Shown in pieces: positions 1,787 to 10,875 of a DNA stretch of 24,000 nucleotides (positions are counted from its first letter, which is position 1; each line of letters starts with the position of its first letter). The notes below the pieces were generated by a model. The model had not been told where the DNA came from. It made no database searches and worked only from the letters and a program-made list of their open reading frames with translations. Origin of the DNA: Acidimicrobiales bacterium. GTDB taxonomy: Bacteria > Actinomycetota > Acidimicrobiia > Acidimicrobiales > CATQHL01. The position numbers and the translations under genes were made by a program. Location of the stretch: the NCBI GenBank assembly GCA_963668565.2, contig CAXXMX010000006.1, positions 1 to 24,000 of the forward strand. The letters run 5' to 3'.

Positions 1787-2115
1787 GACGAATCAGCATC
1801 GGCCCGCATCGCGGCAGGTCAACGACCACGGCCGAGTTTCCGGCACCCACGTGTGTCCTGAAGGGAAGTGATGACGATGTAGAAGATCGTCGGCACGATC
1901 CGTGCTGTGCCAGTGATGGAGGTAGGTCCTCCGGGGTCGCCGTGCAGGCGGAGATTCCAAACCACCGCAGGCTGCGTCGGTCAAGAGCCGGGGTGGTGAG
2001 CGCTGCGGTTGACGTCTCGCTGTGAGCGGGGCGGGTGTGCGATGAGAAGACGAACATGTGTGAACCACTGCTGACGCATCGAAACGAAATAACGATGGCA
2101 TCGAAACTGGGATCT

Positions 2116-2122
2116 GTGGGTG
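2116..2122 (+). other. Candidate EBS1 of the group II intron
   Basis: GTGGGTG sits in the loop of the hairpin CTGGGA-tctGTGGGTGg-TCCCGG (2107-2129). It is the exact complement of exon bases 1844-1850 (CACCCAC), directly 5' of the proposed splice site. Confidence 0.6.
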
Positions 2123-2381
2123 GTCCCGGGACAAAGGCTCGCTGCGGTGGGCCCTCAGTCGGGGAGCTGCCTGTATGTGGCCCCGGCGGTGCCCGGTGTA
2201 TAGGTGGCGTGAGCTCATCGCAGGCGCTGGCATGGAACAGGAGAACCTGTCGCCCCGATAGAGACGGCTGGTGTTATTGGCCGCGAGAGGGAGAACCACA
2301 AGCAGCGGACACTGCGAGTGCGAGAGTACCGATGCGGGGCACAGGGGCGGACCGGCCCGTAGTAGCGGTGAGGGCCCTGTA

Positions 2382-3728
2382 ATGGGGTCGGAGCGAAGGG
2401 GCCGGGCAGTTCACGGTCGTTTGGAGGTCAACCCTTCGGGGGAGGAGCCGACAGATCGACCGAGGCAGAAGAAGTTGAAGTCGTTTGAGATTCCGAAGCG
2501 TCTCGTTTTCGAGGCGTGGAAGAAGGTCCGAGCGAACAGTGGAGCGCCGGGCGTGGACGCTGTGAGCATCGACGATTTCGCAGCCGACGAGGTGAACAAC
2601 CTCTACAAGCTGTGGAATCGGATGTCTTCGGGGAGCTATTTCCCGGGGCCGGTGCGAGCGGTTGAGATACCGAAAGATCATGGGGCCGGGGTCAGGGTTC
2701 TCGGTGTGCCGAATGTGGCAGACCGGGTGGCTCAGACCGCGGCAGCGATGCTGCTGGAAGAGAAGCTTGAGCCGATCTTCCACCCCGACAGCTACGGATA
2801 CCGGCCTGGGCGAAGCGCCCACGACGCGTTGGCCGTGGCTCGTAAGCGTTGTTGGAACAAGGACTGGGTGCTCGATCTCGATGTCCGGGCCTTCTTCGAC
2901 AGCGTTCGCCATGATCTGCTCATGAAGGCGGTCGCTCACCACACCGACGAGCGTTGGGTGCTGCTCTACATCGAACGGTGGCTCAAAGCCCCCATGACGA
3001 TGCGAGACGGAACCACCGCGCCACGAGAGAGGGGAACCCCACAAGGATCTCCGATCTCGCCGCTGCTCGCGAACCTCTTCATGCACTATGCGTTCGACAA
3101 GTGGATGGACCGGGAAAACTCCCGCTGTCCGTTCGAGCGTTACGCGGATGATGTGGTCATCCACTGCGACACCGAGCAACAGGCCCAACAACTCTGCGCC
3201 GACCTCGCTGAGCGGCTCGGGTCCCTGGGCCTTGAGCTGCATCCCGACAAGACGAAGATCGTGTACTGCAAAGACACGAAGCGCCGTGATGAGGCGGAGC
3301 ACACCAGCTTCGACTTTCTCGGCTACACCTTCCGGGGTCGCCTGGCCCGTGGCCGACGAGGCTTCTTCGTGAGCTTCTCACCAGCCATGAGCCCCAAGGC
3401 GAAGAAGGCGATCGGCAAACAGATCAGGGACTGGCACCTCAACCGTCGCAGTGCAACGGACCTCGCCGGACTCGCCGGGGCCATCAACGCCCAGGTCCGA
3501 GGCTGGTTCAACTACTACGGGGCCTTCTACCGCTCCGAGTTGTATGCCATCGCAGCGCGCATCGACGAACATCTCGTCCGATGGGCGATGCAGAAGTTCA
3601 AACGATTGCGAGGCCAACCCACCAAAGCGTGGAGATGGCTCGACGCTGCCCGTCAGCGCGAGCCACAACTCTTCGCTCACTGGCACCTCGTTGCTTCAAC
3701 CCCACGCCGGACTGTGGGAGCCGTATGA
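2382..3728 (+). CDS. Group II intron reverse transcriptase/maturase (RT domains 0-7 plus X/maturase; no DNA-binding or endonuclease domain)
   Basis: Motifs present: GAPGVDAVSIDDF, RAVEIPKDHGAGVRVLGVPNVADRVAQ, SYGYRPGRSAHDAL, DLDVRAFFDSV, GTPQGSPISPLLANLFMH, the catalytic YADD (RYADDVVIHC), LHPDKTKIV, FLGYTF, and the X domain RGWFNYYG. ATG 2382 lies in a DIVa-like hairpin (ACAGGG...CCCTGT, 2341-2380). An alternative TTG start at 2475 would give MKSFEIPK... The 2271 start in the track is probably too far upstream. Confidence 0.9.
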   Translation: MGSERRGRAVHGRLEVNPSGEEPTDRPRQKKLKSFEIPKRLVFEAWKKVRANSGAPGVDAVSIDDFAADEVNNLYKLWNRMSSGSYFPGPVRAVEIPKDHGAGVRVLGVPNVADRVAQTAAAMLLEEKLEPIFHPDSYGYRPGRSAHDALAVARKRCWNKDWVLDLDVRAFFDSVRHDLLMKAVAHHTDERWVLLYIERWLKAPMTMRDGTTAPRERGTPQGSPISPLLANLFMHYAFDKWMDRENSRCPFERYADDVVIHCDTEQQAQQLCADLAERLGSLGLELHPDKTKIVYCKDTKRRDEAEHTSFDFLGYTFRGRLARGRRGFFVSFSPAMSPKAKKAIGKQIRDWHLNRRSATDLAGLAGAINAQVRGWFNYYGAFYRSELYAIAARIDEHLVRWAMQKFKRLRGQPTKAWRWLDAARQREPQLFAHWHLVASTPRRTVGAV

Positions 3729-3790
3729 CGGGAGACTGTCACGTACGGTTCTAAGAGAGCGGGAGGGGGAGGTTCCCTCCCGCCACTCAC
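3718..3790 (+). ncRNA. Group II intron catalytic domain V (3718-3751) and domain VI (about 3757-3788)
   Basis: Domain V is GAGCCGTATGACGG-GAGA-CTGTCACGTACGGTTC. It has the AGC triad, a two-helix 34-nt hairpin and a GNRA loop, matching the conserved domain V consensus. Domain VI is GAGCGGGAGGG-ggaggtt-CCCTCCCG-CCA-CTC, with an unpaired A at 3785 as the branch-point candidate. Confidence 0.85.
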
Positions 3791-3812
3791 CAAGGCGGGT
3801 AAGCGCCTGCGC

Positions 3813-4058
3813 GTGACTGCGACAGCCCGTGGCTCGACGGTGGAGGTGGAGTTCGCCAGCGGCCCAACCGGCGCGGAGAATCTGGAGGACCGGATCGCGC
3901 TCCTGGCCGACCCGGAGTCCGACATGTCCGAACTCGAGATCGAACGCGACGTGTCGCTGCGGCTTCTCCGGCACCACGCGACCACGGTGAACCACCGGCA
4001 GTACAACGAGGCCGAGATCATCACCGCCGTCGTCACCGTCGACGGGGACGGCAACTAG
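3813..4058 (+). CDS. Hypothetical small protein (81 aa), no family recognised
   Basis: GTG start. GC3 is very high through VTATARGSTVEVEFASGPTGAENLEDRIALLADPESDMSELEIERDVSLRLLRHHATTVNHRQYNEAEIITAVVTVDGDGN, ending at TAG 4056-4058. The frame stays open back to 3729, across the intron 3' end, so the true N-terminus is unclear. Confidence 0.45.
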   Translation: MTATARGSTVEVEFASGPTGAENLEDRIALLADPESDMSELEIERDVSLRLLRHHATTVNHRQYNEAEIITAVVTVDGDGN

Positions 4059-4142
4059 TCCGCCGCCTGCCGTGCCCGCTGAGCGGCGCCAACCGGCGCG
4101 GTGCGGCCGAGCACGGACGCGGCTCGGTGACCCCCGGTGCGT

Positions 4143-5000
4143 TCAGATCGTGGCGGTGAGGAGATCGGAGGCGACGACGACGGTCCCGGTGTAGCCACCG
4201 GAGCGAACGTCGGCGGCGAGCGCTGCGGTGTCGTCGGGTCCCTCGGGGGCCGGCATGAGGTGCGTGAGCACCAATTGCGCGACCCCGGCACGGGCGGCCA
4301 GCGCTCCGAGCGTCGGCGCCTCGGCGTGGAGTTGGGCGAGTTTCTCCACGCGCCGTGCCGGCAGCCCCAACTCGAGCAACTTGGCGCTGCGCAGCACCTC
4401 GTGCACCAAGATGTCGGCCCCGGTGGCGAGACGTTCGACGGCATCGCATGCCCGGGTGTCGCCGGAGATCACCACGACGCCGTCGGGAGTGGTGAATCGG
4501 TAGGCCACCGCAGGCCTGACGCCGCCGTGCTCGACGAGGACCGACTCGACGAGCACGGCGCCGAACGTTGCGACCTTCGTCGGCGTCTGCTGCGGCTCGA
4601 AGGGGTGCACGGCGGGATCGGGTCGATCGGGGAAGCCGGCCAGACCGATGCGCGCCTCGATGTCCGGTTGCAGGTTGTCGAACAGCGACTCGACGAAGTC
4701 GACGGCATGACCGGCGGGGCAATGGATCGGTAGTGCGGGGCAGGGACGCTCCCCGTTGCGAATCCACCGGGTCAGCACCAGATCAGCGATCCCCATGAGG
4801 TGGTCGCTGTGGTGATGGGTGATGACCAGGCCCGCCAACTCGGTGATGTCGACGCCGGCCTCAGTGAGGCGGAACGTGGTTGCGGGGCCGGCATCGACCT
4901 GGATCAGCGTTCCGTCGTGGCGCACCAGCGCGCCCGCCCCGGCGCGGCCCGGCGATGGCAGCGGAATGCCGCTGCCGGTGATCATCACGTCTGTCGCCAT
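4143..5000 (-). CDS. MBL-fold metallo-hydrolase (RNase Z/ElaC-like)
   Basis: MATDVMITGSGIPLPSPGRAGAGALV...LIQVDAG, the HxHxDH motif in LVITHHHSDHLMG, then ISGDT and LVLTHL. ATG 5000 is preferred over the track's GTG 5012, because the GTG would overlap the IS inverted repeat. Confidence 0.85.
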   Translation of the reverse strand: MATDVMITGSGIPLPSPGRAGAGALVRHDGTLIQVDAGPATTFRLTEAGVDITELAGLVITHHHSDHLMGIADLVLTRWIRNGERPCPALPIHCPAGHAVDFVESLFDNLQPDIEARIGLAGFPDRPDPAVHPFEPQQTPTKVATFGAVLVESVLVEHGGVRPAVAYRFTTPDGVVVISGDTRACDAVERLATGADILVHEVLRSAKLLELGLPARRVEKLAQLHAEAPTLGALAARAGVAQLVLTHLMPAPEGPDDTAALAADVRSGGYTGTVVVASDLLTATI

Positions 5001-5011
5001 GGCCAGTGACA

Positions 5012-5033
5012 CTAGATGATTAGTTCCAAGGGG
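5012..5033. repeat. IS982 terminal inverted repeat (end downstream of the transposase gene)
   Basis: Read directly from the sequence. Its reverse complement matches 6064-6085 at 21 of 22 positions. Confidence 0.85.
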
Positions 5034-5942
5034 TCAGTGGTCGTAGGCGAGTAGGGAGCGGGCGGGGCCTGGTTGTTGGGTGGTTTGGTTGTGCCAGATT
5101 GTGGCGGTGAGGGCGAGGAGTCGTTGTAGGACGCGCGCGGCGACGCCGGCGGGGGTGCGCCCGCCGTGGCGTTCGAGGCCGAGTTGGGCTTTGAGGGTCT
5201 GGTTGACCGATTCGATGATCTGGCGGAACGGCCGCAGGAACGCCCGGCCCGCTCGGGTGGGTTCTGTTTTGGTGGCGGGTCGGATGAGGGTGATGCCCGC
5301 GTTGTTGAGTTGGGCTTCGAAGGCGGCGCTGCGGTAGCCCACCTCGGCGATGAGGGTCTGGCCCCGCCGGGCGACGCCGGCGTGGGCGATCATGTCCCAA
5401 CAGACGTCGCGCTCGTCGGCTTTCGCGCCGGCGAGGGCGAAGGTGATGGGCAGGCCCGACGGGGTTGTTATGAGGTGCAGGCGCAGGCCCCAGAAATAGC
5501 GGGAGTGCGAGGCGCTGTAGCCGTAGGTGGCCCATCCGGGCCGCTCAGAGCGCTTTTGGGTCTCGCGGCTGCGCCCGCACTCCACGGGCGTGGAGTCCAC
5601 GAGCCAGACGTCGTCGTGCCAGGACGCGCAGGCGCGTGCGAGGCAGGCCATCACGTGCTTGATCAGTTCGCCGCTGCGGCGCAGACGCTTGTTGTAGCCG
5701 GGCCGCGGGGGCACGTAAGGAAACCACGGCGTCAGGTGTGCTTTGGCGTAGCGCACGAAACGGGCCTCAGAGTCGAACCCCAACAAAGCCTGCAACACCG
5801 CCAGAGAAACCAGCTCCGCATCAGACAGTTCCGGGGCGATACCCACCGCGGGCCGCGGCGGCGCCCACTGCGGGTGCGCCACCAACAAGTCATCAATCGT
5901 CACATAAAGTGCCGTCGCGAGGGTGTCCAAGTCCGGGTTCAT
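5034..5942 (-). CDS. IS982-family DDE transposase
   Basis: MNPDLDTLATALYVTIDDLL...LSDAELVSLAVLQALLGF...WLVDSTPVECGRS...YGYSASHSRYFWGLRLHLI...ADERDV...LIAEVGYRS...RQIIESVNQTLK. ATG 5942 is preceded by GGAGGA. The longer 6035 start in the track is unlikely. Confidence 0.85.
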   Translation of the reverse strand: MNPDLDTLATALYVTIDDLLVAHPQWAPPRPAVGIAPELSDAELVSLAVLQALLGFDSEARFVRYAKAHLTPWFPYVPPRPGYNKRLRRSGELIKHVMACLARACASWHDDVWLVDSTPVECGRSRETQKRSERPGWATYGYSASHSRYFWGLRLHLITTPSGLPITFALAGAKADERDVCWDMIAHAGVARRGQTLIAEVGYRSAAFEAQLNNAGITLIRPATKTEPTRAGRAFLRPFRQIIESVNQTLKAQLGLERHGGRTPAGVAARVLQRLLALTATIWHNQTTQQPGPARSLLAYDH

Positions 5943-6063
5943 GCCAAGGTCCTCCAGGATCGGGGGCGGTTTCACCTCCCGATCTTGGACACCCTCAACC
6001 ACCCAGCGGCGGACCCCCCGCTCGCACCACCACACCGCCGACTTGGCCGACCCCCCGCTCGCA

Positions 6064-6085
6064 CCCCTTGGAACTACTCATCTAG
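6064..6085. repeat. IS982 terminal inverted repeat (end upstream of the transposase gene)
   Basis: Partner of 5012-5033. It overlaps the second copy of a 17-bp subterminal direct repeat, GACCCCCCGCTCGCACC (6012-6028 and 6049-6065). Confidence 0.85.
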
Positions 6086-6165
6086 AAGACCGTCACGTGG
6101 CTGCGGCCGTGCCACGAGGTCGGATACCGCAGTCCGCTGAACACCGCGGCACTACCGTTAGCGCC

Positions 6166-7476
6166 ATGGCCGGTTCCGAGACGGCGGCGACTCAGGAACT
6201 CCGCGCGCTCGACCCGTCCCTCGAGCGCCGGTTCGTCCGTCTGACCGACCGGGTGTTCGTCGCCGCCGGGTACGGCGGGTCGACGTTCTCCTTCGTGGTC
6301 GGTGATACCGGCATCGTCGCCGTCGACGCGGGCAGCGCGCCGGGCCCGGCGGCGGAGGCGATCGCCGAGCTCAAGCGATACAGCGACCTGCCCATCGTTG
6401 GGCTCGTCTACACCCACGGGCACATCGACCACACCCACGGGGCGATCGCGTTCGTCGAAGAGAACCCCGACATCGAGATCTGGGCGATCAAGCCGTTCGG
6501 CACCGAGGCACGAACGCTGGCTCGAAACCGTGCCGAGATCGCGGCCACGCGGGCGCTCCGGCACTTCGGGATCATGCTCCCCCCTGACAAGACGATCAAC
6601 ACCGGGGTCGCCCCGCCTGCTGCACCCGAGGACATCCCCGCGTCGATCGATCTCGACCGACGGATACTCCCGACGAGGAGATTCAAGCGAAGCGCCACCA
6701 TCCGGCTGGGTGGGATCTCACTCGACGTGACGCACAACCCCGGCGAGACGGACGACCAGGTGCTCGTCTGGTTCGAGGCCGAACGGGTCGCCTTCGCCGG
6801 CGACAACATGTACCGCTCGTGGCCAAACCTGTACGCCATCCGGGGTACCCAGTACCGCGACGTCCGCACCTGGTGTGAGTCGATCGACCGGATCCGTGCT
6901 CTGCAGCCCGAACACCTCGTGCTCGGCCACACGTTGCCGTTCAGCGGAGCCGCCGAGGTCGACGAGGCGCTGGACGTTTACAGCCGGGGGCTGTGGCACG
7001 TGTACAACGCGACCATCGACGGAATGAACGCCGGGAAGACGCCCGATGAGCTGGTGCACGAGGTGCGGCTTCCCGACGAACTTGCCGCTCACCCGCTGCT
7101 GCGCGAGTACTACGGCAACGTCAGCTGGTCGGTGCGCGCCATCTTCGCCGGCGTGCTTGGCTGGTTCGACGGCAACCCCACGACCCTGAACCCGCTGCAT
7201 CCTGCCGACCGCGCAGGGCGGATCGCGGATCTCCTCGGAGGCCCCGATGTGCTGTTCACCGAAGCGGCGGCCGCTCTGGGTGCCGGCGAGGCGCAGTGGG
7301 CGGCCGAACTCTGCGACATGCTGGACGCGCTTGACTTCCGGCCGGCCGAGGTGGCTGCGCTGAAAGCCGAAGCCCTCGACGAGATCGCCTACAACCTCCT
7401 CACCACGTCCGGCCGCAACTACCTCCACACCTACGCACAGGAACTTCGCTCGTCTGTTGAAGGCGATGAGCGGTAG
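6166..7476 (+). CDS. Alkyl/aryl-sulfatase-like MBL hydrolase (MBL domain plus alkyl-sulfatase dimerisation domain; no SCP2 tail), paralog 1
   Basis: MAGSETAATQELRALDPSLERRF..., HxHxDH in VYTHGHIDHTHG, then NPGETDDQVLVWF, NMYRSWPNLYAIRG, VLGHTLP, YYGNVSWSVRAIFAGVLGWFDGNPTTLNPL and GEAQWAAELCDML. The 5923 start in the track lies inside the IS. ATG 6166 matches the N-terminus of paralog 2. Confidence 0.85.
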   Translation: MAGSETAATQELRALDPSLERRFVRLTDRVFVAAGYGGSTFSFVVGDTGIVAVDAGSAPGPAAEAIAELKRYSDLPIVGLVYTHGHIDHTHGAIAFVEENPDIEIWAIKPFGTEARTLARNRAEIAATRALRHFGIMLPPDKTINTGVAPPAAPEDIPASIDLDRRILPTRRFKRSATIRLGGISLDVTHNPGETDDQVLVWFEAERVAFAGDNMYRSWPNLYAIRGTQYRDVRTWCESIDRIRALQPEHLVLGHTLPFSGAAEVDEALDVYSRGLWHVYNATIDGMNAGKTPDELVHEVRLPDELAAHPLLREYYGNVSWSVRAIFAGVLGWFDGNPTTLNPLHPADRAGRIADLLGGPDVLFTEAAAALGAGEAQWAAELCDMLDALDFRPAEVAALKAEALDEIAYNLLTTSGRNYLHTYAQELRSSVEGDER

Positions 7477-8773
7477 CGAGACGGCGGCGACCCGCGAGCT
7501 GCGCTCGGTCAACCCCTCCCTGGAGCGCGCGTTCGTTCAGCTGACCGACCGCGTGTTCGTCGCTGCCGGCTACGGCATGTCGACGTTTGCCTTCGTGGTC
7601 GGTCAAACCGGCATCGTCGCCGTCGACGCCGGCAGTACACCCCGCGCATCGGCCGAGGCGATCGCCGAACTGCGGCGCCACAGCGACCTGCCGATCCTCG
7701 GGCTCGTCTACACCCATCACCACTTCGACCACACCTACGGGGCGGTGGCGCTCGTCGACGAGAACCCCGATATCGAGATCTGGGCCATCGAGCCGTTCGG
7801 CAACGAGACGCTGCACCTCTTCTGTGTCGCCACGGTCGCCAGGCAACGCGCCCTGGGGCAATTCGGCCACCTGCTCCCAGCCGAACTGCATATCAACAGC
7901 GGCTTCGCATCAGCGTCGGCGACGCGCGACTTCCGTATCGGCGAACTCCCCGACCCGCGGATCGGCCCCACCAGGACGTTCGAGGGGGCCACGACCGTAC
8001 GGCTGGGCGGCGTCACGCTGGAGGTGTCGCACAACCCCGGCGAGACCGATGATCAGGTTCTCGTCTGGTTCGAGGACGAGCGGGTCGCCTTCGTCGGCGA
8101 CAACATGTACCGGTCGTGGCCGAACCTGTATGCCATCCGGGGCTCGCGGTACCGGAACGTGCGCGACTGGTGCGAGTCGATCGACCGCATCCGTGCCCTG
8201 CAGCCCGACCATCTCGTGCTCGGCCACACGCTGCCGATCAGCGGCGCCGCCGGGGTGGCCGAAGCGCTGGAGGTCTACAGCCGGGGACTGTGGCACGTCT
8301 ACAACGCCACGATCGAGGGGATGAATGCGGGGAAGACGCCCGATGAGCTTGTGCATGAGGTGCGGCTTCCCGACGACCTCGCAGACCATCCGCTGCTGCG
8401 CGAGTACTACGGCACCGTCGCCTGGTCGGTGCGCTCGATCTTCAACGGTGTGCTCGGCTGGTTCGACGGCAACCCGACGACCCTGAACCCGCTCGATCCC
8501 GCCGACCGTGCCCGGCGGATCGCCGGTCTCGCCGGAGGTGCAGGCGTGCTGGCGGAGCGGGCCCGTGCGGCGCTGGCCGGCGGCGAGGCGCAGTGGGCCG
8601 CCGAGTTGTGCGACATGCTCCTGGCGCTGGATGTCCGCCGGGCCGAGGTGACGGCGCTGAAGGCTGACGCCCTCGACGAGCTGGCCTACAACTCCGTCAC
8701 GGCGACCGGCCGCAACTACCTGCACACCAGCGCGCAGCAACTCCGCGAGGCCATTGACACCGCAGGCGGCTAG
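7466..8773 (+). CDS. Alkyl/aryl-sulfatase-like MBL hydrolase, paralog 2 (tandem duplicate)
   Basis: MSGSETAATRELRSVNPSLERAF..., VYTHHHFDHTYG, NPGETDDQVLVWF, VLGHTLP, WFDGNPTTLNPL. ATG 7466 overlaps the 3' end of paralog 1 (its TAG is at 7474-7476). By eye it is about 80% identical to paralog 1, except for one divergent central block. Confidence 0.85.
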   Translation: MSGSETAATRELRSVNPSLERAFVQLTDRVFVAAGYGMSTFAFVVGQTGIVAVDAGSTPRASAEAIAELRRHSDLPILGLVYTHHHFDHTYGAVALVDENPDIEIWAIEPFGNETLHLFCVATVARQRALGQFGHLLPAELHINSGFASASATRDFRIGELPDPRIGPTRTFEGATTVRLGGVTLEVSHNPGETDDQVLVWFEDERVAFVGDNMYRSWPNLYAIRGSRYRNVRDWCESIDRIRALQPDHLVLGHTLPISGAAGVAEALEVYSRGLWHVYNATIEGMNAGKTPDELVHEVRLPDDLADHPLLREYYGTVAWSVRSIFNGVLGWFDGNPTTLNPLDPADRARRIAGLAGGAGVLAERARAALAGGEAQWAAELCDMLLALDVRRAEVTALKADALDELAYNSVTATGRNYLHTSAQQLREAIDTAGG

Positions 8774-8812
8774 TCGGCAGGACCGGCGGAGGCCCGCCAT
8801 CGCGATGGGCCG

Positions 8813-9535
8813 TCAGCCCTGCGCCGGCGCCTGCAGTACGCGCAGGAGGTCGTTTGCCGAGACCTCTATGAGTTCGGTCATGACCCGGGCGGCCTCGTCC
8901 TCGTCCCGTCGGCGTATGGCATGAGCAACCTCGGCGTGTAGCCCGAGGGTGGTGGCCGGACCGCCGGGCACTTGCACGGTGAGACGGCGGCTCCCCTCCA
9001 GTGCGATCCGGATCGTCTCGGCCATCTGCGCCAGTACGGGATTCGCCGCCGCCCGGAACACTGCGTTGTGGAATTCCAGGTCGGCTGCGATGTACCGGCT
9101 GAAGTTGGAGACCGCGTCGGCCATCGCCCCATACAGGTCGACAAGCATGTCCGCCGCCTCGTCGCTCCGCCGGCGCGCTGCCAACCTTGCCGCCTCCGGC
9201 TCGATCACCAGGCGCACCTCGGCAACGTGACTGAGCGTCGTCGGCGCTGATCGGGCGGCGATGCTCCAGCGCAGGACGTCTGGATCGAGCAGGTTCCACG
9301 ATCGGTGGTTTGCGACGACGGTGCCCGCCTTCGGGCGGGACTCGATCAGTCCCTTGTCCCGGAGAAGCCCCAAGGCTTCCCGAACCACGGTGCGTGAGAC
9401 TCCCAACTCCACCGAGAGGTCGTCCTGGTTCGCAAACCTGTGCCCAGGCGGATAGGTGCTGTCGATGATGCTGTAGCCGATTCTCTCGACAGTGCGCTGA
9501 CGCAGACCAGTGCCGGTCCGGGTGTCGAAGTCCAC
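8813..9535 (-). CDS. GntR-family transcriptional regulator, FadR subfamily (winged HTH plus FCD domain)
   Basis: LRQRTVERIGYSIIDSTYPPGHRFANQDDLSVELGVSRTVVREALGLLRDKGLIESRPKAGTVV, followed by an all-helical FCD-like C-terminus (RLVIEPEAARLAA...DLEFHNAVFRAAANPVL). GTG start at 9535. Confidence 0.9.
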   Translation of the reverse strand: MDFDTRTGTGLRQRTVERIGYSIIDSTYPPGHRFANQDDLSVELGVSRTVVREALGLLRDKGLIESRPKAGTVVANHRSWNLLDPDVLRWSIAARSAPTTLSHVAEVRLVIEPEAARLAARRRSDEAADMLVDLYGAMADAVSNFSRYIAADLEFHNAVFRAAANPVLAQMAETIRIALEGSRRLTVQVPGGPATTLGLHAEVAHAIRRRDEDEAARVMTELIEVSANDLLRVLQAPAQG

Positions 9536-9570
9536 GGGCGGCAGTCTAGCGAGCCCCTTGTGCAGATGAT

Positions 9571-9592
9571 CAATAGTATGATATTACTATTG
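9571..9592. promoter_or_regulatory. Candidate GntR operator in the divergent promoter region
   Basis: Perfect palindrome CAATAGTA-TGATAT-TACTATTG inside a sharply AT-rich island (about 9561-9600). It lies between the GntR start (9535) and the dehydratase start (9619). It contains the GT...AC core typical of FadR-type GntR boxes. Confidence 0.55.
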
Positions 9593-9618
9593 TACGATCC
9601 TCTGCTCGGAGTAGCGCC

Positions 9619-10875
9619 ATGAAGATCACCGGCATCACCTCCCACGTCGTCGCCAATACCTGGAAGGACTGGCTCTGGGTTCGGGTCGACACCGACGAGG
9701 GGATCCAAGGAGTTGGCGAGGGGACCGTCAACGTGTTCACGCGCACGGTCGAGACCGCCATACGTGACCTCCACGAGAGGTTCGCGGGCCATGACCCGTT
9801 CGAGATCGAAGCGCTACTGGTCGCCACCCAGCGCGATGTCTACACCGATGGCGGGCAGATCCACGGGGCCGCCGTGGCGGCAATCGAGATGGCTTGCTGG
9901 GACATCATGGGCAAGGCGTTGAACGTTCCTGCACACAGGCTGCTCGGCGGGCGGATCCGCGACCGGGTCAGGGCCTACGCCAACGGGTGGTACACGGTGG
10001 AACGCACCCCGGAGGCGTTTGCCGGGGCGGCCCGCCGTGTTGTGGACCTCGGCTTCACCGCCATGAAGTTCGACCCCTTCGGCGATGCGTGGCAGGTTCA
10101 GAGCGGCTACGAGGAGGACATCGCCATCTCCCTGGTGGAGGCCGTTCGCGACGAGGTCGGCCCCGGCTCGGACCTGATGATCGAGGCCCACGGCCGCTTC
10201 GGCATGTCCGCGGCTCTGCGCATCGCCGAGAGACTCGCTCCGTTCCGGCCGGCCTGGTTCGAGGAGCCGGTCTCCCATCACAACATCCCGGTGCTGGCGG
10301 ACGTTGCGCGGCGGTCGCCCGTGCCCGTCGCAGCAGGCGAGTCGTTCTCGGCCCTTCACCAGTTCGCCGAGCTGCTTGCCACCGGAGCGGTGGGAATACT
10401 GCAGCCCGAGCCGGTCCACCTCGGGGGACTCTGGCGCACGAGGCAAGCGGCGGCACTCGCTGAAGCGGGTCACGCCGTGGTGGCGCCCCACAATGCTCAG
10501 GGCCCCATCTGCTCGGCGGTCAGCGCGCAGCTCGCGGCCTGCGTGCCGAACTTCTACGTCCAGGAGTCCTTCGACAGCTTCAACGAGGACTGGACGCGCG
10601 ACCTGGTTGATCCGCCCATCAGCGTGGTCGACGGCTACATCGACATACCCAAAGGGCCCGGACTCGGCATCGAGGTCGACTGGGCACGCGTCGAGAGCCA
10701 TGCCGGCGGCAAGCGCCACTCCCTGGAGTTGTTCTCCCGTGGTTGGGAGTTGCGCGGCGCGGACCAAGCGCCAAGCGGCCGAGGCATCGGCGTCTCGGGA
10801 ACGCAGGCCGCCGACCCATCCCAGCCGTCGTCGCGGAGTGATGAGAACCCAACCAACCCGACTACTGAAAGGTAG
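9619..10875 (+). CDS. Enolase-superfamily sugar-acid dehydratase (mandelate racemase/muconate lactonizing family, DgoD-like)
   Basis: MKITGITSHVV...VRVDTDEGIQGVGEG, AIEMACWDIMGKALNVPAHRLLGG, MIEAHGRF, WFEEP, AAGES, ILQPEPVHLGG and APHNAQGPI. GGAG lies 7 nt upstream of the ATG. The last ~35 aa or so (ADQAPSGRGIGVSGTQAADPSQPSSRSDENPTNPTTER) are low-complexity with lower GC3. Confidence 0.85.
   Translation: MKITGITSHVVANTWKDWLWVRVDTDEGIQGVGEGTVNVFTRTVETAIRDLHERFAGHDPFEIEALLVATQRDVYTDGGQIHGAAVAAIEMACWDIMGKALNVPAHRLLGGRIRDRVRAYANGWYTVERTPEAFAGAARRVVDLGFTAMKFDPFGDAWQVQSGYEEDIAISLVEAVRDEVGPGSDLMIEAHGRFGMSAALRIAERLAPFRPAWFEEPVSHHNIPVLADVARRSPVPVAAGESFSALHQFAELLATGAVGILQPEPVHLGGLWRTRQAAALAEAGHAVVAPHNAQGPICSAVSAQLAACVPNFYVQESFDSFNEDWTRDLVDPPISVVDGYIDIPKGPGLGIEVDWARVESHAGGKRHSLELFSRGWELRGADQAPSGRGIGVSGTQAADPSQPSSRSDENPTNPTTER

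Follow-up and report, generated by a model that had tools for sequence, protein, structure and literature searches.

What does a group II intron interrupt when it lies antisense to, and just upstream of, a dead integrase gene, and where exactly does it begin and end? These questions are raised by a 24,000-nt stretch of DNA (contig C6) from an uncultured Acidimicrobiales bacterium (Actinomycetota), which is referred to at its whole length as the window; coordinates are those of its + strand unless stated otherwise. A preliminary description of this DNA had proposed a complete group II intron at this place and had left its host target open. From Rfam models, homologs, covariation and a protein tree we conclude with high confidence that positions 1851–3791 (+) are a full-length, 1,941-nt bacterial group II intron of structural type IIB and open reading frame (ORF) class D (IIB3), which has retrohomed into the right terminal inverted repeat of an insertion sequence (IS).

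Boundaries and ribozyme structure

The intron borders 1850/1851 and 3791/3792 are fixed by three independent lines of evidence. At least eight other IS copies in the same genome align to 706–1850 and then read on, free of the intron, as ...GTTTCCGGCACCCAC-A. About 50 full-length homologs of 1.93–1.97 kb start at the position aligned to 1851 and end at the one aligned to 3791, where they read ...ACTCACC or ...ACTCGAC, while the flanks beyond these points are unrelated. Finally, contig C10 of the same genome is homologous to the window up to 705 and again from 3793. A covariance-model scan of both ends agrees with these borders: the Rfam group II domain I model RF01999 matches over its full length at 1918–2036 (+, 97.5 bits), the model of domains V and VI (RF00029) does so at 3716–3791 (+, 56.4 bits, gathering score 40), and the 5' border stays at 1851. 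The conserved GUGYG 5' end is present as GUGUG at 1851–1855, in line with GUGUG, GUGCG or GUGAG in the aligned homologs. The landmarks of the preliminary description, namely GTGTG at 1851, CACCCAC at 1844–1850 and GTGGGTG at 2116–2122, are all found in the sequence at these coordinates, and its claim of a complete group II intron is borne out by the Rfam matches to domain I and domains V–VI, the ORF, the homologs and the covariation described below.

Consensus folding of 26 diverse introns with RNAalifold yielded 138 base pairs, 67 of which carry compensatory double changes. In this fold, and in agreement with RF01999, domain I (1856–2242, +) is closed by a helix of TCCTG 1856–1860 with CAGGA 2238–2242. 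Domains II–III and the start of domain IV follow at 2246–2381 (+), where a long-range helix in the domain II region, 2246–2257 with 2335–2345, covaries. The entire 531 nt preceding the ORF, including this region, are colinear with the class D introns Pa.de.I1 and BpOF4 D152 (537 and 551 nt before their ORFs) at 56–59 % identity. Domain V at 3718–3751 (+), with its AGC triad at 3719–3721, is as textbook-like as previously described, judged by both RF00029 and the sequence itself. Domain VI at 3755–3788 (+) likewise agrees with the earlier account: the RF00029 alignment puts the bulged branch-point A at 3785, at position −7 relative to the 3' splice site, and its ACTC context is kept in all homologs. 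No helix-breaking change stands out in the window intron against the consensus fold.

Recognition of the exons

The covariation of exon-binding sites (EBS) 1 and 2 with the corresponding intron-binding sites (IBS) was assessed over 39–42 distinct intron/exon combinations. EBS1 had been proposed as GTGGGTG at 2116–2122 (+), in the loop of the hairpin 2108–2130 that is also part of the consensus fold, and is the perfect 7-bp complement of IBS1, CACCCAC at exon positions −7 to −1 (1844–1850, +). This assignment is upheld, as pairing is well above that with shuffled partners: 39 distinct combinations form on average 6.41 of 7 pairs, compared to 4.80 ± 0.13 after shuffling, and the maximum in 1000 shuffles was 5.18. 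Throughout the homolog alignment, the hairpin loop 2115–2122 tracks the last six to seven bases of the 5' exon over many different targets, as seen for TGTGCGTG with ...CACGCAC, GCACGCCCG with ...CGGGCGTG and GGAGGTGG with ...CCACCTC.

For EBS2, the terminal loop 2082–2092 (+) covaries with the exon at about −15 to −8 (for example GAATGTG with CACATTC and CGTAG with CTACG), giving 4.40 of 5 pairs compared to 3.50 ± 0.09 with shuffled partners. EBS2 therefore most likely resides in this loop, the alignment and the shuffle test favoring the register GAAAT at 2086–2090, which would pair with IBS2, GTTTC at exon positions −15 to −11 (1836–1840, +). The closest relative, L031, has GAAAC where the window has GAAAT. 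Two GAAAC motifs had been named as candidates before. The one at 2081–2085 does overlap the EBS2 loop, so that part of the suggestion stands; its first base, G2081, closes the stem and thus does not belong to the loop. The other, at 2103–2107, is unchanged in all homologs whatever their exon, and this invariance rules it out.

The 3' exon is recognized through a single pair. In a scan of all alignment columns against exon position +1, position 2201 (+) ranked highest with 1.27 bits of mutual information, and the combinations observed are T:A in 21 of 21, A:T in 15 of 15 and G:C in 7 of 10 cases. T2201 is therefore EBS3 and pairs with A3792 (+) as IBS3, the last base of the IS and the A of its terminal CA, as also read from the intron-free IS copies and from C10. 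This pairing makes the RNA a type IIB intron, and it also corroborates 3791/3792 as the 3' splice site. Recognition of the 3' exon by a δ–δ' pair, as in type IIA, was rejected: the base 5' of EBS1 does not follow exon +1, as illustrated by L080, L043 and L046, whereas T2201 does.

Host insertion sequence and homing target

The previously recognized "integrase gene" belongs to an IS, and the intron resides inside the terminal inverted repeat of that IS, which resolves the homing target. The 1,146-bp element occupies 706–1850 on the − strand plus its last base, A3792, a span that at least eight further copies in the genome (at least nine in total) share from end to end and that is delimited by the breaks relative to C10. 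It has the ends TG...CA and 16-bp imperfect inverted repeats, TGTGGGTGCCGAAAAC at 706–721 and GTTTCCGGCACCCAC-A at 1836–1850 plus 3792. The intron thus splits the right inverted repeat directly before its last base, and the mobile elements are indeed nested, as had been supposed. Likewise, the intron is antisense to a dead integrase gene as described: the ORF starts at 1786, 64 bp away, on the opposite strand and is frameshifted.

This gene (736–1786, −) encodes a DDE (rve) transposase with a significant Pfam rve_3 match and an HTH_32 match. Its N-terminal part is read in the frame 803–1786 and its C-terminal part in the frame from 736 to about 1365, owing to one extra base in a C-run at about 1365–1368, as mapped against the intact IS copy L009 (351-aa ORF, 83 % identical). 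L009 scores 114 bits on the NCBIfam IS481 model (cut-off 224) and 92 bits on the IS3 model (cut-off 160), both below the family cut-offs; we refer to the element as IS481/IS3-like.

IBS2, IBS1 and IBS3 all fall within the last 16 bases of the IS, which read GTTTC-CGG-CACCCAC in front of the insertion point and A behind it; GTTTCCGGCACCCACA is the IS-end sequence that constitutes the homing target. The left inverted repeat offers the near-identical GTTTTCGGCACCCACA on the other strand, a GTTTT variant. Unoccupied 16-mer sites number 16 in the intron's own genome (13 perfect and three with one mismatch), and the site in the window is the only occupied one.

Several features of the IS itself are worth mentioning. 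The one-base frameshift is common to five IS copies that are 96–98 % identical (the window copy and L003–L006), so this broken subfamily has multiplied. An intact relative such as L009 may mobilize it in trans, or it may rely on programmed frameshifting at the C/G run. In L005 a second, compensating deletion reopens the frame, leaving the middle section out of frame. The flanks of the IS copies often read ...CCC before TGTGGG... at one end and ...CCCACA before GG(G/C)... at the other, pointing to a preference for CCC/GGG as target or to IS ends two bases longer. No direct target-site duplication was found at any examined IS copy, comprising the flanks of L003–L009 and the window copy.

Intron-encoded protein and class assignment

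The intron-encoded protein (IEP) is a reverse transcriptase (RT)/maturase of 448 aa from ATG 2382, with a YADD motif; its ORF (2382–3728, +) is uninterrupted and has its stop codon inside domain V. It matches Pfam RVT_1 (E 1e-42) and GIIM (E 1.4e-13) and reaches 407 bits with the NCBIfam model TIGR04416, "group II intron reverse transcriptase/maturase" (cut-off 300), while the nearest solved structures are likewise group II intron RTs. The searches in Pfam and NCBIfam revealed no HNH, other nuclease or DNA-binding domain, and the protein ends about 30 residues past GIIM with a C-terminal tail (...REPQLFAHWHL...) that lines up with those of the class D references in the alignment behind the tree; a class-specific motif has been described for the tail of class D proteins (Molina-Sanchez et al. 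2010, cited in PMC3552965). The RT/maturase with YADD and X domain but no endonuclease domain, as initially described, is hence supported by Pfam and TIGR04416.

The start codon deserves a comment. A later one, for example TTG 2474, may be used instead and would yield about 417 aa, a length typical of class D. Around ATG 2382 (2376–2400), the motif CTGTAATGG...GAGCGAAGGGG is kept even in distant class D references, whose annotated starts lie 60–70 nt beyond it. This motif may represent the protein-binding structure of domain IVa, instead of or besides a start codon.

For class assignment, eight reference loci were compared, chosen with the help of the plasmid-borne introns that Toro and Martinez-Abarca list (PMC3552965, Tables S1 and S2). 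Pa.de.I1, the Bacillus pseudofirmus intron D152 and Sh.dy.I1 are all listed there as class D; a fourth reference, an S. meliloti intron obtained from the plasmid search, grouped with class D. The non-D references were Rh.js.I1 and Sr.me.I2 (g1), Ni.ha.I1 (g3/F) and the unclassified Rh.sp.I1. The window protein is 47–59 % identical to the four class D proteins, which are 41 % identical to each other, and only 30–33 % identical to the g1, g3/F and unclassified ones. In the maximum-likelihood tree, the window protein and its relatives form a clade with 100/100 support in which the D references are interleaved, separated from the rest by a long branch. The ribozymes point in the same direction: RF01999 is matched by the window intron, its relatives and all four D references, RF02003 by the g3/F and unclassified references, while the g1 references match none. 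On this comparison of proteins and ribozymes we assign the intron to class D (IIB3), with a tree that covers D, g1, g3/F and one unclassified reference.

Recurrence of the intron at IS ends

An RT-based search returned 80 related loci, mostly in metagenome-assembled genomes (MAGs) of Actinomycetota, about 50 of them with a full-length intron. Close relatives occupy the same IS-end sequence with different outer 3' flanks in L031, L032 and L014; among them are two copies in a Candidatus Aldehydirespirator MAG with 94 % protein identity and one copy in genome G044 with 87 % nucleotide identity. Scanning metagenomes for the junction uncovered six further contigs with an intron at the IS end. Two of the six resemble the window, with an antisense intron some 90 bp ahead of the transposase start, and on another one the intron is sense-oriented just past the transposase stop, i.e. 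at the other IS end. The transposases on these contigs are only 40–44 % identical to the type of the intron's own genome. The 3' ends of the metagenome copies were not located due to contig ends, deletions or a 3.1-kb insert. These recurrent junctions identify the conserved IS terminus, at either end of the element, as the homing site of the sub-lineage. A genome search gave no second intron copy in the own genome, and the intron was absent from the 17 same-genus genomes searched.

Further members of the family show other arrangements. In the metagenome loci L130 and L127, the IS-end intron copies (81 % identical) are interrupted at about intron position 860, inside the RT ORF; in L130 the interruption is an insert of about 3.1 kb, and L129 has an internal deletion. 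A sister group with 75 % protein identity (L053–L056 and L061, including four copies in one MAG) resides in an IS630-like transposase gene, between ...CDNYATH and K, and shares IBS1 (CACCCAC) and IBS3 (A) at a different IBS2 (CTACG). This suggests that the target may have been switched between the IS630-like gene and the IS end mainly through EBS2. Other relatives are nested in the RT ORF of another group II intron (L065, L067, L071, L074 with the 5' exon ...SPLLANVYLH followed by YVFD..., L112 and L113); insertion at this conserved RT motif is seen for several relatives and for two of the reference class D introns. An RT of the family with 60 % identity is also encoded on L087, a contig assigned to the bin of a Thermoplasmata archaeon; horizontal transfer or a binning error may account for this.

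Putative mode of homing

Modeled on the homing steps of RmInt1 and RmInt2 (PMC4075523, PMC4615759, PMC5894124), the excised intron RNA with its bound protein would pair with the target through EBS2 (GAAAU with GUUUC), EBS1 (GUGGGUG with CACCCAC) and EBS3 (U2201 with the terminal A of the IS). The RNA would then reverse-splice into the DNA strand between the penultimate and the last base of the IS and, without an endonuclease, cDNA synthesis would be primed by the nascent lagging strand at the replication fork. The position and strand of the locus relative to dnaA and the GC skew place the intron sense strand in the lagging-strand template, co-directional with the fork: dnaA at C10:912,768 coincides with the cumulative GC-skew minimum, the maximum lies at 2.73 Mb and the locus at 3.20–3.22 Mb on the reverse strand. 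As a single case with even prior odds, this orientation is consistent with lagging-strand priming, which we infer for the window intron by analogy.

In the DNA, the intron parts the inverted repeat from its terminal base, so that the insertion probably disables that IS end, whether or not the RNA is spliced. Transcripts that include the intron would have to start upstream of it and run along the antisense strand of the IS.

Alternative explanations

Several observations weigh against parts of this interpretation. The intron lacks the textbook 3' AY and terminates as ...CUCACC with the final two bases CC, an ending that is common to its close homologs, while other family members finish in GAC; the 3' splice site is nevertheless firm because EBS3 covariation and the IS sequence both fix 3791/3792. 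The EBS2–IBS2 pairing reaches 5 of 5 only if one G-U pair is counted, and its linker is 3 nt long compared to 1–2 nt in RmInt1 and RmInt2; the register is not certain. Domains II and III could be assigned only as the joint region 2246–2381, with no finer division. The protein tree spans classes D, g1, g3/F and one unclassified intron, and classes A, B, C, E, CL and ML are not represented in it. A promoter scan found no sigma-70-like promoter upstream of the intron, and the 5' exon is antisense to the transposase gene. Lastly, the genome holds a single intron copy while 16 matching sites stay empty.

Four other explanations have to be weighed in the light of these points. If the 5' splice site were elsewhere, for example at the GTGCG that does occur at 2037, domain I would be incomplete. 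We give this practically no chance: position 2037 lies inside domain I, directly 3' of the RF01999 match at 1918–2036, the roughly 50 homologs all align from 1851 and not from 2037, the domain I closing helix 1856–1860 with 2238–2242 covaries, the IS sequence ends at 1850, and the pre-ORF length agrees with that of the class D references, so the comparative data refute it. It is also very unlikely that the intron belongs to another endonuclease-less lineage (class E, F/g1–g4 or unclassified). This reading could draw on the absence of class E from the tree, on D and E being reported as sister clades (PMC3552965), and on an IEP and intron somewhat longer than those of most listed class D members, which have about 401–439 aa (outliers 375 and 469) and about 1,805–2,001 nt (PMC3552965). 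However, the D references are interleaved with the window clade rather than sister to it, identity to D members exceeds that among D members and drops to 30–33 % for the g1, g3 and unclassified introns, all D references share the domain I submodel RF01999 with the intron, and a start at TTG 2474 would bring the IEP to about 417 aa. Scarcely more credible than a shifted 5' end is an accidental adjacency, in which the IS moved beside a pre-existing intron or a rearrangement joined the two. A rearrangement did occur here, as the window IS copy has no target-site duplication and is tied to a 10-kb deletion (see below), but the intron separates the last IS base, A3792, from the rest of the element, EBS1, EBS2 and EBS3 all find their complement in the IS end, and the same junction with different outer flanks recurs in three other genomic copies and six metagenome contigs. 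The position of A3792 and the recurrent junctions effectively refute a landing of the IS beside an existing intron.

The remaining alternative concerns activity rather than identity: a true class D intron, inserted at a true homing site, would have become an immobile or splicing-defective relic. We regard this as rather unlikely, with several facts in its favor: apart from the single copy amid 16 unoccupied sites and the empty promoter scan, EBS2 forms a G-U pair at a place where the closest relative forms G-C, the IS copy that carries the intron is frameshifted too, and the intron copy is on a minor allele contig beside a deletion. On the other hand, the 448-codon ORF is uninterrupted with YADD and X domain present, domains V and VI and all three EBS–IBS pairings are intact, and no helix-breaking change is evident in the consensus fold. 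Compared with a relative present twice in another genome, the ORF is 96.7 % and the 5' ribozyme 97.6 % identical, and the ratio of nonsynonymous to synonymous change (pN/pS) against the closest relative is 0.47. On balance we consider a functional intron rather probable; the copy would then still splice and move, consistent with the earlier suggestion of an active or recently active element. Recent horizontal arrival is the simplest reason for the low copy number, and the window copy may be such a recent arrival, or poorly mobile or inactive.

Surrounding allele

Contig C6, and with it the window, corresponds as an allele to part of the main contig C10 (G000:C10:3200000-3217437). Positions 1–705 are 100 % and positions 3793–10552 are 99.6 % identical to C10, with breaks exactly at 705/706 and 3792/3793, and C10 holds 9,975 bp where C6 has the IS and the intron. 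By this comparison, the C6 allele is seen to carry an IS-associated deletion of about 10 kb that truncates a membrane-protein gene; this deletion accounts for the missing target duplication at the window IS copy. The last ~88 codons of the gene remain at 3793–4058 (+), while on C10 it is intact with an open frame of up to 592 codons. The remnant includes the 81-aa ORF at 3813–4058, previously discussed as a 3' exon frame of an unresolved host. The host is now resolved as the IS end, and the 81-aa ORF is the tail of the truncated gene, which excludes it as a gene interrupted by the intron. Two strain variants are thus combined in the genome bin, and this may in part explain its 7.7 % "contamination".

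Significance and comparison with known introns

With this locus, a class D intron with clear-cut borders is available from an uncultured Acidimicrobiales bacterium, its three exon-binding sites being backed by natural covariation and empty targets being present in the same genome; it also demonstrates that the entire RNA-recognized target can fit in the final 16 bases of an IS. The annotation of the window benefits as well, since the upstream antisense position of the intron, the orphan 81-aa ORF and the 10 kb missing relative to the sister contig are accounted for. The understanding of how such introns work is unchanged, and a specialist will not be surprised. More tentatively, and with considerable doubt, one may picture an Actinomycetota class D lineage specialized on the conserved 16-base terminus of a whole IS481/IS3-like family, which inserts at the transposase cleavage position of either end, needs no flanking DNA, would act as a general inactivator of IS ends that is programmed by sequence, and would have switched from an IS630-type target mainly via EBS2. 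If true, such a lineage would be a natural brake on an IS family across distantly related hosts.

Among described introns, Pa.de.I1 from plasmid 1 of Paracoccus denitrificans, which lies in an IS66 transposase gene, and the class D intron BpOF4 D152 of Bacillus pseudofirmus pBpOF4-01 (PMC3552965 Table S1) share 56 % and 51 % protein identity with the window intron, respectively; both match RF01999 and have a colinear 5' ribozyme at 56–59 % identity. They differ in their exon-binding sequences and targets, and the present intron has an extra domain II hairpin of about 23 nt. RmInt1 of S. meliloti, a class D intron that homes into the transposase gene of ISRm2011-2 (PMC4075523, PMC5894124), has the same target scheme of 7-bp EBS1/IBS1, 5-bp EBS2/IBS2 and 1-bp EBS3/IBS3, a similar RT-X protein with a C-terminal tail and without an endonuclease domain, and likewise uses an IS as a safe haven. 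RmInt1, however, inserts in sense orientation within the transposase ORF and has a G-C EBS3/IBS3 pair, whereas the present intron is antisense to the transposase gene and lies in noncoding sequence at the end of the IS.

Of the systems described so far, RmInt2 of S. meliloti GR4 comes closest: this class D intron naturally targets the two inverted repeats of ISRm17, pairs EBS3 with IBS3 as U-A, has an EBS2 that is shifted and tolerates mismatches, and is biased toward the lagging strand (PMC4615759; PMC3552965 Table S1); targeting of IS inverted repeats by class D introns is thus already known. Both introns lack an endonuclease domain, use an IS terminal inverted repeat with two oppositely oriented sites per IS as their natural target, share the U-A EBS3/IBS3 pair and have an EBS2 that, compared with RmInt1, is displaced, follows a longer linker and tolerates imperfection; the orientation of the single copy studied here would, as in RmInt2, be consistent with use of the lagging-strand template. 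The S. meliloti class D intron compared here is 59 % identical in protein to the window intron. In contrast to RmInt2, with its alphaproteobacterial host and ISRm17 target, the present intron is found in an uncultured Acidimicrobiales bacterium and in an IS481/IS3-like rve transposase element, inserts between the penultimate and the last IS base and fills only one of about 17 sites in its own genome. The RmInt2/ISRm17 strategy is thereby extended to another phylum and another IS family.

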